From contig JBGARF010000013.1 of the NCBI GenBank assembly GCA_044230345.1, forward strand, positions 90,370 to 154,369: a stretch of DNA of 64,000 bases. The letters are read 5' to 3'. The DNA is from Limisphaerales bacterium (GTDB taxonomy: Bacteria > Verrucomicrobiota > Verrucomicrobiia > Limisphaerales > JADJPG01). Positions 22,094-29,883 of the stretch are shown here, one piece after another. The position numbers and the translations under genes are program-made. Below the pieces are notes generated by a model. The model saw only the letters and a program-made list of their open reading frames with translations. It ran no database searches and was not told the DNA's origin. Position 1 is the first letter of the stretch. Each line of letters begins with the position of its first letter.

Positions 22094-22313
22094 GCCCCGA
22101 TTCTAGCCATCGCGCGGACACTGCACAGGCCGAAAAATGGACAGGCCTTTCTGAGGCGGTCGATTTGGATTGGACGCCGCTGCCGTTTTCAGGCGGAGGA
22201 GTGTCCAGAGAGGATGACAACGGGGACAGATACGTCCTGTCCCCAGACAGCGAGAAGATCGGGAGGACCTCGCGAGGCTCGTGGTATCCGCGGTGCTTAA
22301 GGGCGCTCGACGT

Positions 22314-25300
22314 ATGAGATGTCGTGTCAGCATTGGACGAGAGAACGGAGCGCGAGGACGAGGATGGCGCATGTTGCTGGGGCTTTGCTTGAGCCTTGGC
22401 CTAGGACTTGGACTTGGACTTGGACTTGTGTCGACGAGCCAGGCTGGCCAATCCATCGCCCTCGCCTGGAATCCCAACACCGAAACAAATCTCGCTGGAT
22501 ACAAACTTTATTACGGCACGGCGGCGGGCGTTTATTCGGGGCAGGTCACGGTGGAGCAACCGGGCACGGATGCGATCGTCACGAACCTGACCGCTGGTGC
22601 GACTTATTTTTTTGCGGTCTCCGCCTACTCGACTGAGGGGTTGGAGAGCGAGTTGTCGACGGAGATCTCGTATTTGGTGCCTGGCCCGGGCTCCACCAAC
22701 GTACCGCCGACCGCCCTGCCGTTGAGCGTCACCACCTCCGAGGAGCAAAGCGTGGCGTTCGCCCTGCGTGCGGCCGATGCCAATGGAGACCCGCTGACCT
22801 TCGTCATTGTGGCGCCACCGATCAACGGTCTCATCAGCGGATCGTCGCCCAATCTCACTTACCGGCCCAATGCGAATTTCTTCGGGACCGACACGCTGGT
22901 GTTTCGGGTGAACGACGGCCGAGCCAACTCCGGGCTCGCGATCGTCACGATTACCGTGAATCCGGTCAACGACACGCCCACACTGGCTCCACCGGGCAAT
23001 CTGTCGCTGCCCGTGAATGCGGGAGCCCAGACGGTCAGCTTGAGCGGCATCGGAAGCGGTGCGACGAACGAAAGTCAGACGCTGGTCGTGACCGCCTCCT
23101 CAAGCAACACGGGTTTGATCCCCAATCCGCAGGTCAGCTATGTCAGCCCGAATGCCACCGGCAGCCTGAGCTTCACGCCGGTGGTGAACGCCACGGGCTC
23201 GGCCACCATCACGGTGACCGTCAACGATGGTCAGTCGTTGAACAACGTGCTCAGCCGGACCTTTGTGGTCACGGTGGGCGCGCCGGGTAATCAGCCGCCG
23301 ACCATCAATCCGCTGTCCGATGTGGTTTGCAATGAGGATGCGCAGCAGCAGCTCGTGAATTTTGGCGGCATCACCGCGGGCGGCGTCGGCGAAAGTCAGA
23401 CTCTGTCGGTGACGGCTGTGTCCAGCAATCCCGGACTCATCCCCCATCCGACGGTCCGCTACGACAGTCCGATTTCCGCCGGCTACCTCACGTTTACGCC
23501 GGTGCCAGGCGGCTTTGGCACCGCGGAGATTACGGTCACGGTGAACGATGGTCAGCCCACGAACAATCTCACCTCGCGCCAGTTCCAGGTCACCGTCAAT
23601 CCGGTCAACGATCCACCGACGCTGGACCGCATCAACGACGTCGAGCTCTACGAGGACGACGGCGGAACCACCGTGGAGCTGACTGGAATCGCCAGCGGCG
23701 CAACCAATGAACAGCAAAACCTGACCATCACCGCCGTCTCCAGCAACCCGAGCATCATTCCGGATCCGGTGGTGCGTTACGACAGTCCTTCGTCCACGGG
23801 ATCTCTGCGGATCACGTCGGTGACCAATGGGGTGGGTTCCGCGACGATCACCGTGACGCTCAATGACGGTGGAGGAACCCGCAACACCGTGGTGCAGACG
23901 TTCTATGTCGCTGTGCGTGGAGTGAACGATCCGCCGGTCATGTCGCGCGTTCCCGACCAGATCATCGACGCCAACGGTTCTTCCGGTGTCCTTCAGTTCA
24001 CGGTGGAGGATCCGGACACGGCTCTGAACAGCGTGAGCATTCGCGCCACGAGCTCGAACCCCGCCTTGATTCCATCGTCGGGCCTCGTCGTGGGCGGATC
24101 GGGCGGCAACCGGACTCTGAGCATCACTCCAGCGCTCAGCGTCTCCGGCATCGTTCAGGTTTCCCTCGCTGCCACCGACGGCTACGCCACCAACACGCAG
24201 GTGATTCGGGTGAACGTTGGCTATGTCAACCAGGCCCCGACGATCTCCGCGATCTCGAATCAAACGGTCAACGCCTCCGCCACGCTGGCCAATGTTCCCT
24301 TCCAGATCGCCGACGCCGAGACGGACGCCGAGTCGCTAATACTGTCCGCCACCTCCGCCAACGCCGCGCTGATCCCGTCCACCAACGTCGTCTTTGGTGG
24401 TTCGGGCACGAACCGAACCCTGACCCTGACGCCGCTCGTGGGCCGCACCGGCACGACGATGGTCAGCGTGGCGGTGAGCGACGGCGCCCGCCGCGCGCAG
24501 CGATCGTTTCAACTCATTGTTCGCCCAGTGCAGGCGCGTTTGACCGTCAACCGGTCGGGCCGGGGGACCGTGACGCCCGACTTGAATGGCCAGAACCTGG
24601 TGGTGGGCGCGTCGTACTCCATCACGGCGGTGCCGGATGCCGCGCAGCTTTTTACTGGGTGGAGCGGGGGAGTCCACAGCACCAATCGCACGGTGACATT
24701 CGTCATGTCGTCAAACCTGGTGATTGAAGCCCGCTTTGAGGCGGACTCTTATCAGGTGGCGCAGGGCAGTTACAACGGATTGCTGGCCGAGGAGGATCTA
24801 GTCCGTCACGAAACCTCGGGCTTCTTCTCGGTCGTCTCGACCTCGCGCGGGTCCTACTCAGGCAAGGTGCAGGTGGGGTCCGGGAAGTATTCGATCTCCG
24901 GGTTGATGGGCCGCGATGGTCGCGCAACAAATCGCGTCCTTCGCACCGGGCTCAGCCCGTTGACCGTGGAAGTGTCGTTGGAATTGGGAGAATTGGTGGG
25001 CCGCGTGCGTGGCCGGGTGACAGATGGGGTGTGGACGGCTTTCATCGAGGGCGACCGCCAGCACTATCAGTCCAAGACAAATCCCGCGCCGTTTGCCGGC
25101 GCCTACACGCTGACGCTTCCCGCGGACACAGAATCGCCGACGGGCCCGCTGGGCAGTGGCCACGGCACCGTGCGAGTCGACGGCAACGGCGTCGCCTCGT
25201 TTCTGGGGGTGCTGGCGGACGGAAGCAAGACGGTGCAGAAAGTCCCTCTTTCTCGCAATGGTCAGTGGCCCTTCTATCTGCCGCTTTACCGGGGCGCGGG

Positions 25301-25748
25301 TGCTGCGCTCGGCTGGCTGCGGTTGGACAACGACGTGCGTGAGGTTGACGGGCAGGTGAGCTGGATCAAACCGACCGTGCCGTCGAAGTATTACGCGGGC
25401 GGATTTACCAACGAATCAGCGGTGGTGGGCGCCGGCTACGTGCAGCCCACCCCGGAGCAGTTGAAGTCGGGAGCGCGCCTGATGGAAGTCGCGTGCCTTG
25501 GCGGCAATCTGGCGGGTGTCGTGACCAATGAGTTGATGGTGCTGCCGAACGGTCGCCCGGTGGCCCCCAGCGGCCCGGTGAAATTCGGGTTTTCGCCGTT
25601 GACCGGTTTGTTCAAGGGCACCGTCCAGGACCCGGCCACGGGCAAGTTTCGAACGTTCTCCGGCGTGCTGCTGCAAAAGTGGGGCTCCGGCGCGGGCGCG
25701 GTCTTCGGCCTGGACGAAGTCGGCCTGGTTGAAGTCGCCCAGCCGTAG
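22314..25748 (+). CDS. Secreted FN3 - 6x cadherin-like repeat - InlB-B-repeat-like - uncharacterised C-terminal domain protein
   Basis: Signal peptide ...RGWRMLLGLCLSLGLGLGLGLGLVSTSQA (start ATG 22314 or ATG 22371). FN3 domain: SIALAWNPNTETNLAGYKLYYG...ATYFFAVSAYSTEGLES. Six ~105-aa repeats end in ...VTVN(P)VNDxPT. Then LTVNRSGRGTVTPD...FTGWSGG. The last ~330 aa are shared with the next gene. Confidence 0.85.
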   Translation: MRCRVSIGRENGARGRGWRMLLGLCLSLGLGLGLGLGLVSTSQAGQSIALAWNPNTETNLAGYKLYYGTAAGVYSGQVTVEQPGTDAIVTNLTAGATYFFAVSAYSTEGLESELSTEISYLVPGPGSTNVPPTALPLSVTTSEEQSVAFALRAADANGDPLTFVIVAPPINGLISGSSPNLTYRPNANFFGTDTLVFRVNDGRANSGLAIVTITVNPVNDTPTLAPPGNLSLPVNAGAQTVSLSGIGSGATNESQTLVVTASSSNTGLIPNPQVSYVSPNATGSLSFTPVVNATGSATITVTVNDGQSLNNVLSRTFVVTVGAPGNQPPTINPLSDVVCNEDAQQQLVNFGGITAGGVGESQTLSVTAVSSNPGLIPHPTVRYDSPISAGYLTFTPVPGGFGTAEITVTVNDGQPTNNLTSRQFQVTVNPVNDPPTLDRINDVELYEDDGGTTVELTGIASGATNEQQNLTITAVSSNPSIIPDPVVRYDSPSSTGSLRITSVTNGVGSATITVTLNDGGGTRNTVVQTFYVAVRGVNDPPVMSRVPDQIIDANGSSGVLQFTVEDPDTALNSVSIRATSSNPALIPSSGLVVGGSGGNRTLSITPALSVSGIVQVSLAATDGYATNTQVIRVNVGYVNQAPTISAISNQTVNASATLANVPFQIADAETDAESLILSATSANAALIPSTNVVFGGSGTNRTLTLTPLVGRTGTTMVSVAVSDGARRAQRSFQLIVRPVQARLTVNRSGRGTVTPDLNGQNLVVGASYSITAVPDAAQLFTGWSGGVHSTNRTVTFVMSSNLVIEARFEADSYQVAQGSYNGLLAEEDLVRHETSGFFSVVSTSRGSYSGKVQVGSGKYSISGLMGRDGRATNRVLRTGLSPLTVEVSLELGELVGRVRGRVTDGVWTAFIEGDRQHYQSKTNPAPFAGAYTLTLPADTESPTGPLGSGHGTVRVDGNGVASFLGVLADGSKTVQKVPLSRNGQWPFYLPLYRGAGAALGWLRLDNDVREVDGQVSWIKPTVPSKYYAGGFTNESAVVGAGYVQPTPEQLKSGARLMEVACLGGNLAGVVTNELMVLPNGRPVAPSGPVKFGFSPLTGLFKGTVQDPATGKFRTFSGVLLQKWGSGAGAVFGLDEVGLVEVAQP
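22392..22427 (+). repeat. In-frame hexanucleotide SSR inside the signal peptide ((L-G)n; ggactt x4 plus 2 related units)
   Basis: agccttggcctaggacttggacttggacttggactt read directly. It encodes SLGLGLGLGLGL. Confidence 0.9.
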
Positions 25749-26205
25749 GCGGGTTCGAGGCTCGAGCCGGGATCTGTTCTGCCTGGCGTCTCCGCGGCGC
25801 GCGACCTCCCCGCGCGCCTTTGGCGACGCTCCCCTTTTTCGCGGCGCGGCGTTGACGGTCCCACGACGCTACGACGCTACGACGCTCTCGATCTTTCGGT
25901 GGCTGCCGCGTTCAGCGATCCCCATCCGTGTCGTAGGAATTGCCGTGCCCACGGTTTCCTCCAAGACGGGTTCATCCACGCGCGTCCGAACCTCCGAGCG
26001 TCGTAGCCGACTCAAGCCGCTGCGGGCTGCAAGCCGGCTGCAAGCCCGCGGTCCGGCCGTTCCCCCCGCAGTGAGCGCTGGTGCTTTGTCCTGACGCGGG
26101 ACAACCAAGACAGGGCATCGGTTAGGCAGGACAGGGGCTCGGGCTGCAACTGGCTGAGGGGCAGGCACCGTTCAGGTGGTATCCTCGGTGCTAATGGTCG
26201 CAGTC

Positions 26206-27693
26206 ATGAGCGACCGATCAAACCGGCAGCGAACCAAAATCTGGGGAGCGCTGGCGATCCTTTTGCTCACCGTCGGGTGGGCGGCAGTTCCAGGTGCACG
26301 CGCCGGCCAGTCCATTGCGGTGGCCTGGTATCCGAATTCCGAGACCAATCTCGCCGGCTATCGATTGTTCATTGGTCCCGTGTCCCGCAACTACGACGGG
26401 ATGGTGGAAGTGCCGGCGCCGGAAGTCAGCGCGACCGTGACCAACCTTCTGCCGGGGGCGACCTATTTCTTTTCTGTCATCGCGTACAACACGGAGGGAC
26501 TGGAGAGCGATTTTTCCGAGGAGATCAGCTACACCGTGCCCGGGGGCAACAACGGTGGGGGCAACAATGGCGGCGGGAGCGGGACCAACAATAACAACGG
26601 CGGCGGCAACAACGGGGGAGGGAACAATGGCGGAAATAACGGTGGCAACAACGGTGGCAACAACGGTGGCGGCGGGACGGTGACCAATGATCCGGCGTTC
26701 TTCCTCGCGGCAGCCGGAAATTACAACGGGCTGGTGGCCGAGGAGGACGAAGTTCGCCATGCTCATTCCGGCAGCTTCACCCTGACCGCGACGACTCGCG
26801 GCAGTTATTCCGGCAAAATGTTGATCGCCGGAAAAAATCTTTCGATCCGCGGATTGCTCTCGCCGACGGGACGCGCCACGAATGTCATCGTGCGTCCGGG
26901 CGACGAGACTTTGACGGTGTTGTTGGCGGTGACTCCGGCGCAGCGTCGGGTGGATGGCTGGGTGGTGACCGATTCGTGGCTGGCGCCCTTGATGGGCGAC
27001 CGCAATTCGTATCATGCCAAGACCAATCCCGCTCCGTTTGCCGGCAGCTACACGCTGACCATTCCCAGTCCGGTGGGAACGGTGACCGGGCCGCAGGGGC
27101 ACGGTTATGGCACGGTGAAGATTGATACCAAGGGACAGGCTACTTTCCTGGGCTTTCTGGCCGATGGAAGCAAGGCGACGCAGAGGGCCACGCTGTCCGC
27201 CGGGGGCCACTGGCCATTTCACCTCAATCTCTATGGCGGCGGCGGTTCGTCGTTGGGCTGGCTGGTCGTGAGCGATCAAGGCGACGTCGGCGGACTGGTC
27301 AGTTGGATCCGGCCGACGGCGCCCGGACGGTACTATGCTGGCGGACTCACGAACGAATCCAGTGTCGTGGGTGCGAGCTACACGGTGCCGTCGCCAACGG
27401 ATCTACAGGGCACGGCCCGGCGCATGGCGATTGTCTGTCGAGGCGGCAATTTTGCGACCTCCATCAATGACGAAGTCATGGTCCTGCCGAACGGACGCAT
27501 GCTCGCCCAGCTCGGGGACACGGTCAAATTCGGGTTCTCACCCTCGACGGGCTTGTTCAAGGGCGTCGTGCCCGATCCATCCACGGGCCGTCCGTTGTCC
27601 TTCGGCGGGGTGATCCTGCAGAAATGGCAGTGGGGCGCCGGCATGGTCCTCGGCACGAACCGCGTGGGCTACGTCGGAGTCTCGCTCGAGTAG
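26206..27693 (+). CDS. Secreted FN3 - Gly/Asn low-complexity linker - uncharacterised C-terminal domain protein (paralog of 22314..25748)
   Basis: MSDRSNRQRTKIWGALAILLLTVGWAAVPGARA signal (alternative starts 26176 and 26194). FN3 domain: SIAVAWYPNSETNLAGYRLFIG...ATYFFSVIAYNTEGLES. A GGNN-type linker spans 26542-26676. The C-terminal ~330 aa align with the previous protein. Confidence 0.8.
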   Translation: MSDRSNRQRTKIWGALAILLLTVGWAAVPGARAGQSIAVAWYPNSETNLAGYRLFIGPVSRNYDGMVEVPAPEVSATVTNLLPGATYFFSVIAYNTEGLESDFSEEISYTVPGGNNGGGNNGGGSGTNNNNGGGNNGGGNNGGNNGGNNGGNNGGGGTVTNDPAFFLAAAGNYNGLVAEEDEVRHAHSGSFTLTATTRGSYSGKMLIAGKNLSIRGLLSPTGRATNVIVRPGDETLTVLLAVTPAQRRVDGWVVTDSWLAPLMGDRNSYHAKTNPAPFAGSYTLTIPSPVGTVTGPQGHGYGTVKIDTKGQATFLGFLADGSKATQRATLSAGGHWPFHLNLYGGGGSSLGWLVVSDQGDVGGLVSWIRPTAPGRYYAGGLTNESSVVGASYTVPSPTDLQGTARRMAIVCRGGNFATSINDEVMVLPNGRMLAQLGDTVKFGFSPSTGLFKGVVPDPSTGRPLSFGGVILQKWQWGAGMVLGTNRVGYVGVSLE

Positions 27694-27761
27694 ACCGCCG
27701 GACGCCGAAGTCGCCAACTCACTCCGCGGCTCGCCTCCCGCGGGGATCATCTCCTCCTCCT

Positions 27762-27839
27762 GCTCTTGCTCTTGCTCTTGCTCTTGCTCTCGCTCTTGCT
27801 CTCGCTCTTGCTCTCGCTCTCGCTCTCGCTCTCGCTCTC
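27762..27839. repeat. Intergenic hexanucleotide array, 13 x gctct[tc]
   Basis: Read directly: gctctt x4, then alternating and run units of gctctc. Degenerate units continue to about 27856. It starts 69 nt after the stop at 27693 and follows a hairpin tccgcgg-N8-ccgcggg (27723-27744). Confidence 0.95.
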
Positions 27840-27974
27840 AGCTTGCTCTCAGCTCCGGGAGGAACAACAACCTTTTCAAGCGCGACCCAATTTGCTACCA
27901 CCTGACCTGGCCGACGGGCAGGGGACTCTCGGGCGGCTTGGCTAAACCAACTCAAAACACAGAAAGGAAATCGT

Positions 27975-28130
27975 ATGGCTGCCAAGGCACGTCGAACGAC
28001 ACATCGTAGCAGTGCGGGTAAAAAGCTCTACGCGGTGCGCGACAAGAAAGGAAAGTTTAAGGATATCCAAACTTTTGAGCGTGCGCATCGCGCGGATTTG
28101 GCTCGCAAGGGTAAGGGCGAGAAAAAATGA
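27975..28130 (+). CDS. Small basic protein (51 aa), hypothetical
   Basis: Below the ORF-track cutoff. SD-like aaaggaaatcgtATG precedes MAAKARRTTHRSSAGKKLYAVRDKKGKFKDIQTFERAHRADLARKGKGEKK*. It sits in a locally lower-GC stretch. Confidence 0.45.
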   Translation: MAAKARRTTHRSSAGKKLYAVRDKKGKFKDIQTFERAHRADLARKGKGEKK

Positions 28131-28252
28131 ATCGGAGCGCCGCACGCGAGGTTCGCCGCAGAACCGTTCCCGGCGCTTGGGCTTGACGGTATGGTACCAG
28201 GGCGGCACGCCTGATTCCCTGCTCTCCGCACCCTTGAAATGGAGATAATGTC

Positions 28253-29032
28253 ATGATTTGCCTTCGAAAGAATCGCCCCCGGGCTGCCGGCCGTTGGCTT
28301 GCGCTTGGCCTGAGCGCGGTCGTGAGCCTCCTTCCCCTGAGCCTGCGTGGCGCCGTGGTGGTCGCCGGTCCATCGGTGCTGCCGGTTTCAACCACGAACG
28401 CGGTGGTCACCTGGACCACGGACGTCGCCACGCGCGGCGTGGTCCGATACGGATTGAGCCTGGCCAATCTGGATCAGACCGCCGAAGAGGACGACGTGCA
28501 GGGCAAACATTCGGTGAAGTTGACCGGGCTGCGGCCGGGCGCGCGCTATCATTACGTGGTGGCCACCGCCCGGGTGCCCCTTGCCACCAACGCTTTTGTC
28601 ATGCCGGCAGCCGGGACCTCGGCGCCGGTGCCGTTAGTGGCAACGCGTCCGCGGGAGTCCGCGTCTCCCGGCGTTCCGGCCGTTAAGGAGGCGGCTCGTG
28701 TCACGACGCCTCGGGCGCCGCCCACGCGCGAATCGTGGGGGCAGATGGCCAGCCTGCAGGACCACTACGAGCGGCACGGACCCGATTTTCAGGCGCGCGA
28801 CGCCGACGATTACGCGCGGCAGGCCTGGGAGTTTTTGCAGCGTGCCCGGCAGGAGGGGTTGCCGGCGAAAGTCGACGATGATGGCGTGGTGCGTATTTAC
28901 GATCCCAAGACCCGCGCCTTTGCCGCTTACAATCGCAACGGCACAACCAAGACCTTTTTCAAACCGAACAGCCGCGATTACTTCGAGCGCCAACCGGGGC
29001 GCCCCGTTAACGCGAAGACTCTCAAGTTTTGA
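28253..29032 (+). CDS. Secreted protein: signal peptide + FN3-like domain + Pro-rich linker + ~110-aa C-terminal module of unknown (toxin-like?) function
   Basis: GGAG lies 9 nt upstream of ATG 28253. Signal peptide: MICLRKNRPRAAGRWLALGLSAVVSLLPLSLRG. FN3-like domain: VVTWTTDVATRGVVRYG...LTGLRPGARYHYVV. C-terminal module: LQDHYERHGPDFQARDADDYARQAWEFLQRARQEGLPAKVDDDGVVRIYDPKTRAFAAYNRNGTTKTFFKPNSRDYF. Confidence 0.75.
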   Translation: MICLRKNRPRAAGRWLALGLSAVVSLLPLSLRGAVVVAGPSVLPVSTTNAVVTWTTDVATRGVVRYGLSLANLDQTAEEDDVQGKHSVKLTGLRPGARYHYVVATARVPLATNAFVMPAAGTSAPVPLVATRPRESASPGVPAVKEAARVTTPRAPPTRESWGQMASLQDHYERHGPDFQARDADDYARQAWEFLQRARQEGLPAKVDDDGVVRIYDPKTRAFAAYNRNGTTKTFFKPNSRDYFERQPGRPVNAKTLKF

Positions 29033-29034
29033 TC

Positions 29035-29313
29035 ATGAGCAATACCTGCCCAGTCTGCCGTTTTCCCGGATTGACCGAACCGCCTCGAGGCAAGTCAGGC
29101 GGCGCCTCCTTTGAAATCTGTCCCTGCTGCGGCTTTCAGTTTGGCGTCTCGGACGACGACGAAGGTGTGACCTACGTCGCGTGGCGGCGACGCTGGAAGG
29201 AAGGAGGCATGCGTTGGTTCAGCAAGGGGCGCCGGGCACCCGCCGGCTGGGATGCGGCCGCCCAGTTGAAAGCCAGACCCGTGGCCCCGGCGAAAGTTGC
29301 GCGCAAGAAATAG
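29035..29313 (+). CDS. Small 4-Cys zinc-ribbon protein (CPxC...CPCC type)
   Basis: ATG 29035 lies 2 nt after the upstream stop (29030-29032). MSNTCPVCRFPGLTEPPRGKSGGASFEICPCCGFQFGVSDDDEG... has two Cys pairs followed by an acidic patch and a basic tail. Confidence 0.65.
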   Translation: MSNTCPVCRFPGLTEPPRGKSGGASFEICPCCGFQFGVSDDDEGVTYVAWRRRWKEGGMRWFSKGRRAPAGWDAAAQLKARPVAPAKVARKK

Positions 29314-29526
29314 GGATTCCGGGGGGGGCGGAGACTCTCATGGGGCGATTCTTTAGTTGACGGTCGAATCGCTTTTGGGCAAGCCTTGGCCTCGTCAGCG
29401 CAAAGAACAGCGGTGTCGGTGTCAAAAGACAGATTGTCAGCCAGCCAGAACTAGCGACGAATCAGAGCTACTGCCAGGGCAGCAACTCCCCACTTAGTTT
29501 TTTAAGCGCCCAACCACCTTGGTGTC

Positions 29527-29883
29527 ATGAATGAGTCCCGTCTCTTCGTAGGAAACCTCTCCTATCAAACCATGGACAACGACCTGCAGGACTACTTTTC
29601 CCAGGCAGGGGTTGTCGCGTCTGTGAACGTCATGCTCGACAAGTTCACGGGTAAGTCCCGCGGGTTCGCCTTCGTGGAAATGTCCACGCCGGACGAAGCC
29701 AACAAAGCCGTTGAAATGTTCCACAACAAGGAATTTCAAGGCCGTCCCTTGACGGTCAACATCGCCCGTCCGCGCGAGGAACGTCCGCCCCGTCAGGGTG
29801 GCGGTGGCGGCGGCGGCGGATACCGTGGCGATCGCGGGGACCGAGGTGACCGCGGCGATCGGGGTGATCGCGGCCGTTACTAA
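29527..29883 (+). CDS. RRM-type RNA-binding protein with Gly / (RGD)5 tail
   Basis: RNP2 motif LFVGNL, RNP1 motif RGFAFVEM, and a C-terminal GGGGGGGGYRGDRGDRGDRGDRGDRGRY. Confidence 0.9.
   Translation: MNESRLFVGNLSYQTMDNDLQDYFSQAGVVASVNVMLDKFTGKSRGFAFVEMSTPDEANKAVEMFHNKEFQGRPLTVNIARPREERPPRQGGGGGGGGYRGDRGDRGDRGDRGDRGRY

Follow-up and report, generated by a model that had tools for sequence, protein, structure and literature searches.

A Sec-exported FN3-headed protein of a Limisphaerales bacterium with a predicted colicin D-like ribonuclease module and a zinc-ribbon partner as its candidate immunity protein

Two adjacent genes on contig JBGARF010000013.1 of a Limisphaerales bacterium very probably encode, judging from sequence comparison and structure prediction, a colicin D-like RNase toxin and its cognate inhibitor. 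The pair lies within a stretch of 64,000 nucleotides, referred to here as the window. On the homology and the predicted model described below, the interpretation of the C-terminal module of gene 1 as a polymorphic-toxin nuclease cassette of the colicin D tRNase (BECR) fold holds, and the adjacency of the two genes across different carriers bears the hallmark of a toxin-immunity cassette. By sequence, both are real genes rather than chance open reading frames, because homologs of each are numerous. The features of the locus are as follows.

28253-29032, forward strand: gene 1, 259 aa plus stop (open reading frame, Pfam domain matches, homologs)
28253-28354, forward strand: Sec-type signal peptide of gene 1, about aa 1-34 (cleavage site inferred, not computed)
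28358-28597, forward strand: FN3-like domain of gene 1, Pur_ac_phosph_N type, about aa 36-115 (Pfam)
28598-28732, forward strand: Pro/Ala/Thr-rich linker of gene 1, about aa 116-160, ending in APPTR (composition)
28733-29029, forward strand: predicted toxin module of gene 1, colicin D-like (BECR fold) RNase domain, aa 161-259 (PDB match, AF2, Foldseek)
29035-29313, forward strand: gene 2, 92 aa, putative cytoplasmic immunity protein
29047-29130, forward strand: zinc ribbon of gene 2 with two CxxC knuckles, C5, C8, C29 and C32 (invariance of the cysteines, Cys_rich_CPCC matches)
29143-29163, forward strand: acidic patch G-V-S-D-D-D-E of gene 2, aa 37-43, straight after the second knuckle (conservation)

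From its N- to its C-terminus, the product of gene 1 consists of a Sec-type leader, a Pur_ac_phosph_N-type FN3 domain, a linker rich in Pro and Ala, and a final module of about 100 aa. An earlier note, made from the sequence alone, had proposed the signal peptide, the FN3 domain and the Pro-rich linker, and computation bears out all three. In the N-terminal sequence, MICLRKNRPRAAGRWLALGLSAVVSLLPLSLRGA, a basic n-region precedes a hydrophobic core, and the maximum Kyte-Doolittle (KD) mean over 12 residues is 2.4; an N-terminal hydrophobic segment (KD >= 1.8) is present in 68 of 79 distinct homologs, and AXA-type cleavage sites are clear in relatives (ALHA/A, VHA/VE, AQA/VE). Residues 40-107 match PF16656 Pur_ac_phosph_N (E 4e-9, 37.4 bits against a cutoff of 30) as well as PF00041 fn3 (E 5.4e-6). 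Of the 46 linker residues (aa 116-161), 9 are Pro and 9 are Ala, and the APPTR directly N-terminal of the module is conserved in FN3-headed homologs.

A Shine-Dalgarno-like GGAGA is found at 28243-28247, 5 nt 5' of the gene 1 ATG. The TGA of gene 1 occupies 29030-29032 and the ATG of gene 2 lies 2 nt beyond it, at 29035, the spacing on which the earlier note had remarked. Neither the promoter and terminator scan nor Rfam, searched with 27600-29600, yielded a hit; gene 1 and gene 2 are both without a match in PADLOC and NCBIfam, and the window holds no second copy of either gene. The GC content of 28-30 kb (0.619) falls inside the range of the window, and a genomic island or recent transfer was rejected as an explanation of the locus.

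The C-terminal module had been likened to the nuclease cassettes of polymorphic toxins, and comparison with solved structures supports this likeness in both sequence and fold. Searching the PDB with the single module sequence (phmmer) retrieved the CDI toxin chain 8ey4_A with an E value of 6.4e-6, and searching with the module profile (hmmsearch) retrieved the same chain at 5.7e-7. The AF2 model of the module (pLDDT 96.5, pTM 0.89) displays a pre-alpha helix, an alpha helix and a four-stranded sheet in the order pre-alpha, alpha, beta1-beta4 (H15-29, H34-51, E54-57, E63-67, E72-76, E82-86), which is the topology given for the Colicin-like group in the BECR classification preprint. The Foldseek comparison that the earlier note had recommended returned toxin folds: the best match to the model is again 8ey4_A (E 7e-6, TM 0.86 normalised to the target), followed by the colicin D tRNase structures 1v74, 1tfk, 1tfo and 5znm with probabilities of 0.97-1.0. 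Colicin D is absent from the results of the PDB sequence searches with the module. Pfam and NCBIfam, Colicin_D included, gave no module match on gene 1 aa 150-259 at E <= 1, nor did they match at E <= 10 when queried with the 8EY4 sequence or with four homologs.

Conservation points to a candidate active site composed of H171, H175, D178, K206, T232, T234 and K237. The two motifs that the earlier note had read as HxxxHGxxF and T-x-F-x-P, corresponding to H171-x3-H175-G-x-x-F179 and T234-F-F-K-P238, are present in gene 1 and invariant or nearly so over 80 homologs. Within this set H171, H175, K206 and T234 do not vary at all, and conservation of D178 is at least 90%; the first four are also common to the module and the CDI toxin 8EY4. 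The motifs listed for Tox-Colicin D are [KH]K, Hxx[ED], [ST] and [TS]xxK (Zhang et al. 2012, PMC3482391). Three of the four can be read in the module, as H175-G-P-D178, T232 and T234-F-F-K237, and the fourth, [KH]K, is half matched by H171-F172; the matching residues are invariant or at least 90% conserved in the 80 homologs. The correspondence to K607, K608, H611, D614 and S677 of colicin D is a motif reading from sequence alone.

The module has Phe where the [KH]K motif of colicin D has its second Lys, and this could be taken to mean that the module is a catalytically inactive relic, acting as an RNA- or ligand-binding domain of a surface or periplasmic FN3 protein. We consider this extremely improbable, given the invariance of H171, H175, K206 and T234 and the conservation of D178, and given that the partner is kept in 79 of 80 loci, a retention that would be puzzling if the protein were harmless.

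Gene 2 reads C5-P-V-C8 ... C29-P-C-C32 followed by GVSDDDEG, so that the four-cysteine ribbon and the DDDEG patch described earlier are both in place. Because Ser is usual at C31 across the family, the putative zinc ligands are C5, C8, C29 and C32. These four cysteines are invariant in alignment A5 of the wider gene 2 family, which consists of alignment A3 plus remoter homologs linked to Rhs, cadherin and CdiA proteins. In A3 the four residues from G37 to D40 never vary and conservation at D41 and D42 is at least 90%, while in A5 invariance is confined to G37 and D40, with V38, S39, D41 and D42 at least 90% conserved. The protein has no hydrophobic segment, and its C-terminal half is Trp-rich (W50, W54, W61, W72). 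The fold beyond the zinc ribbon is unassignable, since the structure model is poor (pLDDT 62) and Foldseek against the PDB returned nothing below E 3.8.

By sequence, gene 2 is a distant relative of Pfam Cys_rich_CPCC (PF14206; 'CPCC family cysteine-rich protein' at NCBI), with which it shares the layout CPxCG...L.E...EICPxC followed by acidic residues. The match of gene 2 itself is 10 bits (E 0.81), below the gathering cutoff of 24.5 bits; PF14206 is the best sub-threshold Pfam match of 27 of 29 relatives, among single-domain relatives the lowest E value is 4e-4, and tandem two-domain relatives alone exceed the cutoff. An hhalign comparison with a canonical CPCC protein gives a probability of 91% and E 1e-6 over 29 columns covering the ribbon, and the feature that marks the Pfam family, a homologous CPxC...CPxC ribbon with acidic residues, is found in gene 2. 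However, the similarity is restricted to profile positions 1-27 of 75, and the Trp-rich C-terminal half has no counterpart in the canonical CPCC sequence.

We assessed how widely the module and its partner occur together. Searched as single sequences, the module has 107 close homologs and gene 2 has 28; profile searches raise these numbers to 2360 representatives and 3635 clusters, respectively. A genome scan confirmed 306 relatives, the best 80 of which were inspected; labels of the Verrucomicrobiota lineage are attached to 79 of these 80 loci. In 79 of the 80 a homolog of gene 2 stands directly 3' of the module, and the sole locus without one has just 51 nt of sequence remaining. In most cases the two genes overlap by 4 nt or are 1-35 nt apart, and in two loci (L001, L002) the gene 2 homolog is downstream though the remaining neighbours differ.

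The module lies at the C-terminus of its carriers, within about 10 residues of the end in all but one of the 150 matches listed. These carriers comprise RHS-repeat/YD-shell, DUF637 and WXG100_2 proteins, cadherin/Big_9 giants and FN3-headed proteins, together with a hemagglutinin-repeat protein of Rhizobium; the same domain thus ends different delivery proteins, as polymorphic toxins do. The cognate small gene travels with it. A gene 2 homolog is downstream in each of the six carriers of other than FN3 type that were examined, namely two Rhs proteins (L091, L092), a giant cadherin-repeat protein (L093), a WXG100-linked toxin (L095), a CdiA-like DUF637 protein (L096) and a CdiA-like hemagglutinin-repeat protein on a complete RefSeq Rhizobium plasmid (L097). 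On a Lactococcus plasmid, a canonical CPCC gene stands downstream of what remains of a copy of this toxin module. The survey of homologs that the earlier note had called for agrees with its suggestion of a toxin-immunity layout, and the module also ends Rhs and CdiA-like proteins. Module and partner identities, compared pair by pair, are correlated (r = 0.64), but common phylogeny would account for this just as well, so that it counts for little.

A small gene strictly 3' of a toxin domain is an established immunity-gene signature. The strict 3' position of gene 2 homologs over six unrelated delivery architectures and several phyla accordingly speaks against a different role for gene 2, namely that of a zinc-ribbon nucleic-acid-binding regulator or a helper in export or folding, with rapid Sec export alone protecting the producer. 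Some properties of the family would suit such a role. Its members are basic rather than acidic overall, with a core pI of about 7.7-8.8 and a full-length median of 9.3; some homologs carry histone H1-like Lys/Ala-rich tails resembling those of nucleic-acid binders, with a weak match to PF07382 HC2; the low-confidence model lacks a structural neighbour; and, CPCC proteins aside, detectable similarity is limited to generic zinc ribbons of the ribosomal, transcription-factor and rubredoxin type. On the other hand, tandem and stand-alone relatives of gene 2 exist and resemble orphan and poly-immunity proteins, and the Rhs proteins and the WXG100-linked toxin of L095 are not Sec substrates, so export alone cannot protect their producers. 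We therefore judge a non-inhibitor role to be very unlikely and retain the reading of gene 2 as a putative immunity protein.

Among solved structures, CdiA-CT/CdiI of E. coli O32:H37 (8EY4, 'PT-VENN domain-containing protein') is the only one that is detectably homologous in sequence to the module. The two share H171, [KR]174-H175-G, F179, Y187, K206, F223, T234, F236-K-P and Y243, and in both systems the toxin domain has an adjacent immunity protein, although the identity is just 26%. The architectures differ: the E. coli toxin sits at the tip of a CdiA filament behind a PT-VENN pre-toxin motif and uses type V secretion, whereas the 259-aa product of gene 1 starts with a Sec leader, carries an FN3 head and lacks the VENN motif. 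Of the CDI hallmarks (TPS domain, FHA repeats, VENN, cdiB) none was detected, the domain matches of gene 1 being to FN3 only, and no CdiB-like gene was found within 20-33 kb of the window. Sequence and profile searches of the PDB with gene 2 (E <= 10) returned no 8EY4 chain; on sequence, the immunity protein of 8EY4 is not a relative of gene 2. A literature search on 8EY4, the O32:H37 CdiA and CPCC immunity found no publication.

Colicin D with ImmD (1V74, 1TFK, 1TFO, 5ZNM) has the same Colicin-like BECR topology as the module model, the likeness being one of fold and not of sequence. Colicin D is a plasmid-borne bacteriocin that is released without a signal peptide. As listed by Zhang et al. 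(PMC3482391), Tox-Colicin D domains occur on RHS, filamentous-haemagglutinin and Sec/T2SS-exported proteins, their immunity proteins are ImmD and Imm64, with no zinc ribbon among them, and their phyletic range does not include Verrucomicrobia.

Barnase and barstar offer a functional analogy for the FN3-headed form: the RNase is small, Sec-exported and of the BECR fold, and its inhibitor stays in the cytoplasm and shields the cell that makes both. Barstar has an alpha/beta structure, is acidic and contains no zinc; gene 2, in contrast to nucleic-acid mimics of the barstar or ImmD type, is non-acidic. Barnase belongs to a BECR branch other than that of the gene 1 module, and no specific structural or sequence match of the pair to barnase or barstar was found.

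Within the Verrucomicrobiota lineage the pair is unusually stable. The FN3-headed form with its partner recurs in Verrucomicrobiota MAGs, in loci that bear the labels Limisphaerales, Chthoniobacterales, Verrucomicrobiaceae and Opitutaceae, and also in the cultured Brevifollis gellanilyticus. In strain NBRC 108608 of the latter (L084) the two genes occupy about 145.7-146.7 kb of NZ_BKAG01000001.1. The head is detected in 73 of the 80 loci; the others have no detectable head rather than another payload, and one subclade has lost the FN3 head and keeps a membrane anchor alone. Combinations of the same N-terminus with different C-terminal toxins were not found for the FN3-headed form in the 80 loci. 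A stable head and partner over several order and family labels is atypical for a polymorphic toxin, and the mean identities among FN3-headed loci, 63% for the module and 58% for the partner, represent at the sequence level less variability than an arms-race weapon would show.

The earlier note had counted three consecutive FN3-headed proteins at this locus (starting at 22314, 26206 and 28253) and proposed a cassette in which one head is combined with different payloads. All three do have FN3 heads, but they are not the same head. By sequence comparison, the two upstream proteins are paralogs of each other (62% identity in the head, 53% over a C-terminal domain of 330 aa) with heads unrelated to that of gene 1, and BLASTP of either against gene 1 shows no similarity. 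Their shared C-terminus is non-toxin. They accompany the pair only in its nearest relative (L004) and are absent from a locus that is 82% identical (L011). We thus rejected the cassette idea, the upstream heads being unrelated and unlinked to the pair elsewhere; in gene 1, head and payload are kept together across Verrucomicrobiota, the opposite of shuffling.

The stability of the FN3-headed form bears on what it is used for. Its use as an inter-bacterial weapon is, in our estimate, only somewhat favoured. The pair could instead constitute a domesticated system, in which a periplasmic or extracellular housekeeping or scavenging nuclease (for nucleotides or phosphate) is accompanied by a cytoplasmic inhibitor and no weapon is involved. 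The parallel with barnase and barstar, the recurrence of the same architecture and partner under several Verrucomicrobiota order and family labels (best 80 of 306) and the high conservation of both proteins would fit this scenario, as would export signals of the Sec type only and the lack of dedicated secretion or delivery genes among the neighbours of the pair. The head of gene 1 is of the FN3 subtype found N-terminally in purple acid and PhoD phosphatases, the anchor of the headless subclade would keep the enzyme at the cell envelope, and barnase itself occurs in two guises, as a secreted enzyme and as a payload of polymorphic toxins (PMC3482391). Yet the same pair of module and partner is borne by dedicated toxin-delivery proteins outside the Verrucomicrobiota lineage, characterised Colicin-like BECR enzymes are specific tRNases and not degraders of bulk RNA (BECR preprint), and the flanking genes have no link to nucleotide or phosphate uptake. 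A domesticated RNase of this kind is possible but rather unlikely. A broader proposal, that the Verrucomicrobiota pair is either a lineage-wide, vertically kept 'public' bacteriocin at the level of the phylum with shared immunity or a domesticated envelope RNase, appears improbable to us; if true, the likeness of the inhibitors between species would amount to shared immunity and the toxin would hit outsiders. It would follow from this proposal that the large, DUF-like superfamily of CPCC zinc ribbons represents RNase immunity proteins of a zinc-dependent class.

Returning to the preferred interpretation of a toxin with its inhibitor, the Sec signal peptide would direct the gene 1 product out of the cytoplasm, leaving a mature protein in which a flexible Pro/Ala linker joins the FN3-like domain to a C-terminal ribonuclease of about 100 aa. 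This enzyme most likely cleaves RNA, probably tRNA, in a metal-independent manner, with H175 of the pre-alpha helix acting together with H171 and D178, and T232, T234 and K237 contributed by the last strand. Translation of gene 2 is probably coupled to that of gene 1, and its product would remain cytoplasmic, fold around one zinc ion through four cysteines, and bind and neutralise the RNase domain. Such an inhibitor would guard the RNA of the producer before export and against toxin delivered by siblings.

The kind of polymorphic toxin described here is known, while the immunity family to which gene 2 belongs is uncharacterised, and the toxin domain paired with it has no Pfam or NCBIfam model of its own. 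Short genes of the gene 2 type often go uncalled in annotation, for example in L002, L092 and L097, the last on a complete plasmid. The compact, Sec-only FN3-headed toxin makes a tractable case for two questions, namely by what route an exported RNase toxin of this small size is delivered, or whether domestication has taken place. Our analysis suggests that the relatives of gene 2, which border on the uncharacterised Cys_rich_CPCC family of Pfam, confer immunity to a toxin domain of the colicin D-like RNase type.

The two genes were located in the ORF list as follows.

28253-29032, + strand: gene 1, 259 aa
29035-29313, + strand: gene 2, starting at ATG 29035 (alternative start codon TTG 29029)

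All the sequence features listed in the earlier note were found present: the ORFs, the leader, the FN3 domain, the linker and the 2-nt spacing. Gene 1, with an SD-like GGAGA upstream, has an N-terminal end that combines a basic n-region with a hydrophobic core (Kyte-Doolittle 2.4), an FN3 domain at aa 40-107 (Pfam Pur_ac_phosph_N, E 4e-9, over its cutoff; fn3, E 5e-6) and a linker rich in Pro/Ala. An A-P-P-T-R motif (window 28718-28732, aa 156-160) directly precedes the toxin domain and is conserved among homologs with an FN3 head that belong to different orders; it may serve as a processing site or cap that domain at its N-terminus. At the junction the raw sequence reads ...AAG TTT TGA tc ATG AGC AAT ACC TGC..., with the gene 2 ATG 2 nt past the stop codon of gene 1. 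We place the gene 2 start at this ATG because the homologs all open with M-x-x-x-C-P-V-C. No hydrophobic segment is present in gene 2.

Gene 1 aa 150-259 gave no match in Pfam, NCBIfam or PADLOC. A PDB sequence search with the C-terminal module returned one significant relative, 8ey4_A (E 6.4e-6; 5.7e-7 using the family profile), an 88-residue chain named 'PT-VENN domain-containing protein', whose entry, as described in the fold search, is the complex of a contact-dependent growth inhibition toxin with its immunity protein, from E. coli O32:H37. The AlphaFold model of the module, built with 80 homologs as input, is very confident (pLDDT 96.5, pTM 0.89) and runs from a pre-alpha helix through an alpha helix to four strands. 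With this model, Foldseek again places 8ey4_A first (TM 0.86 on target), ahead of four colicin D tRNase structures (probability 0.97-1.0). In a 2026 preprint that treats the BECR RNases, the 'Colicin-like' group is defined by exactly the same topology (pre-alpha helix, alpha helix, four strands); there, the active site lies on the pre-alpha element together with the last strand and has a conserved His that often comes after Lys/Arg, and tRNAs are the substrate of most characterised members. For Tox-Colicin D, Zhang et al. 2012 (PMC3482391) give the motifs [KH]K, Hxx[ED], [ST] and [TS]xxK. Candidate counterparts read from the module sequence are H171-F172, R174-H175-G-P-D178, T232 and T234-F-F-K237, all invariant or nearly so across the 80 homologs, and most of these residues are common to 8EY4.

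A profile search with the module against 1.84 billion representatives gave 2360 matches, and in the 150 listed the module forms the protein C-terminus. Its carriers include long RHS-repeat/YD-shell proteins (P0203, P0216, P0263, P0267) and fragments of such proteins, a CdiA-like DUF637 protein, a WXG100_2-containing protein encoded after two WXG100 genes, and a cadherin/Big_9 protein of 3155 aa; two further carriers, a hemagglutinin-repeat protein of Rhizobium and a TIGR04388 protein of Leptospira, come from annotated plasmids. Judged from sequence, this distribution is that of a polymorphic-toxin payload. Together, the 8ey4_A match, the colicin D fold and the Rhs, DUF637, WXG100 and cadherin carriers bear out the earlier suggestion of a polymorphic-toxin nuclease cassette.

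We then consider the pairing with gene 2. A scan of one genome per species found 306 stretches encoding a module relative, of which the best 80 were kept (79 labelled as Verrucomicrobiota-lineage, one as Myxococcales). Of these best 80 of 306, 79 have a gene 2 homolog immediately downstream of the module and on the same strand; in the single exception the sequence stops 51 nt past the module. The two genes mostly overlap by 4 nt or stand 1-35 nt apart. In other loci the pair occurs amid otherwise unrelated neighbour genes, and synteny around it is shared with the window by the closest relatives only. A gene 2 homolog also follows the toxin in all six non-FN3 cases examined, where the small gene is uncalled in three: two Rhs toxins (L091, L092), the cadherin giant (L093), the WXG100-linked toxin (L095), the DUF637 protein (L096) and the Rhizobium hemagglutinin-repeat protein (L097). 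Cognate immunity genes are defined by their presence behind the toxin across unrelated delivery systems. Both counts thus give comparative support to gene 2 as the toxin's immunity partner, as had been proposed.

Right behind toxin genes, gene 2 homologs are often unannotated or uncalled (L097 1631-2041, L002 6453-6716, L092 8166-8405); L097 is the complete RefSeq plasmid NZ_CP071607.1 of Rhizobium binae, in which the uncalled ORF overlaps the stop of the hemagglutinin-repeat protein. Two homologs appear truncated past the acidic patch (L083 4303-4551, by an in-frame stop; L095 3802-3975, a 57-aa ORF) and may reflect errors of assembly or immunity genes in decay. Shortly past the pair, window 29527-29883 encodes an RNA-binding protein of the bacterial RRM_1 type (E 5e-21) whose tail is Gly-rich and has GDR repeats, kept in position in loci L004 and L011 and not in more distant ones.

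In the gene 2 family, C5, C8, C29 and C32 are invariant, a G-V-S-D-D-D stretch is conserved, and Trp occurs at 50, 54, 61 and 72. PDB searches found no relatives of gene 2 except generic zinc knuckles, and no relationship to the 8EY4 immunity chain. A link to Pfam Cys_rich_CPCC is real but partial: gene 2 scores 10 bits, under the 24.5-bit cutoff, sub-threshold matches occur in 27 of 29 relatives, two-domain tandem relatives pass the cutoff, and hhalign with a canonical CPCC protein reaches 91% probability, limited to the ribbon. That protein comes from the Lactococcus raffinolactis plasmid NZ_CP047617.1 (L098), where a 9-kb DUF6531 (Rhs-type) gene and the gene next to it precede a frame-disrupted, degraded copy of the toxin module, and the 'CPCC family cysteine-rich protein' gene is annotated 20 nt past the remnant (1501-2014); the arrangement looks like an orphan toxin-immunity module. 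Two gene 2-like zinc-ribbon domains in tandem are seen in P0283, P0284, P0290 and L094 5001-5705; of these proteins, P0283 and P0284 exceed the Pfam cutoff, and P0284 has no toxin gene adjoining it and in this resembles an orphan or poly-immunity protein. As the recorded immunity proteins of colicin D-type toxins are ImmD and Imm64 (PMC3482391), the zinc ribbon would be a further immunity type. Caution on the inhibitor reading comes from gene 2 being not acidic overall and from its poor structure model.

On the other hand, the earlier idea of one FN3 head joined to different payloads was not borne out. The two FN3-headed proteins encoded upstream are each other's paralogs (head 62%, 330-aa C-terminal domain 53% identity); no similarity of either to gene 1 was found, and they lie next to the pair only in L004, the nearest relative. 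A matching gene 1 head is present in 73 of the 80 loci, a Chthoniobacterales-type subgroup carrying a membrane anchor in its place, and head and payload are inherited together within Verrucomicrobiota. Because of this co-inheritance, and because the upstream paralogs are unrelated to gene 1, we find no evidence for a shuffling cassette at this locus and reject it. Both paralogs (window 22281-25748 and 26176-27693) are secreted; for their shared C-terminal domain of ~330 aa there is neither a Pfam model nor a relative by sequence in the PDB, and the larger protein also contains Big_9/Cadherin_5 repeats and an InlB B-repeat. A hexanucleotide tandem repeat, CTCTTG/CTCTCG (27757-27855, about 14-16 copies, 87-92% matches), lies within the 560 intergenic nt that separate gene 1 from the gene for the 505-aa FN3 protein.

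The best-supported reading is that gene 1 encodes an exported, predicted colicin D-like RNase, and gene 2 a co-translated zinc-ribbon protein that would inhibit it in the cytoplasm. It is atypical that a single architecture recurs, highly conserved, in loci whose labels span several orders within one phylum (mean identity 63% for the module, 58% for the partner). Since this architecture is conserved across orders and no delivery genes lie near the pair, we keep two further readings open: a domesticated exported RNase resembling barnase, and a toxin common to the whole phylum, immunity to which would be shared. The toxin-immunity interpretation of the pair is well supported by the comparative sequence data. 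The pair belongs to an already known kind of system, to which it brings an immunity family that is large and uncharacterised, and an architecture that is conserved and unusual; each merits experiment.
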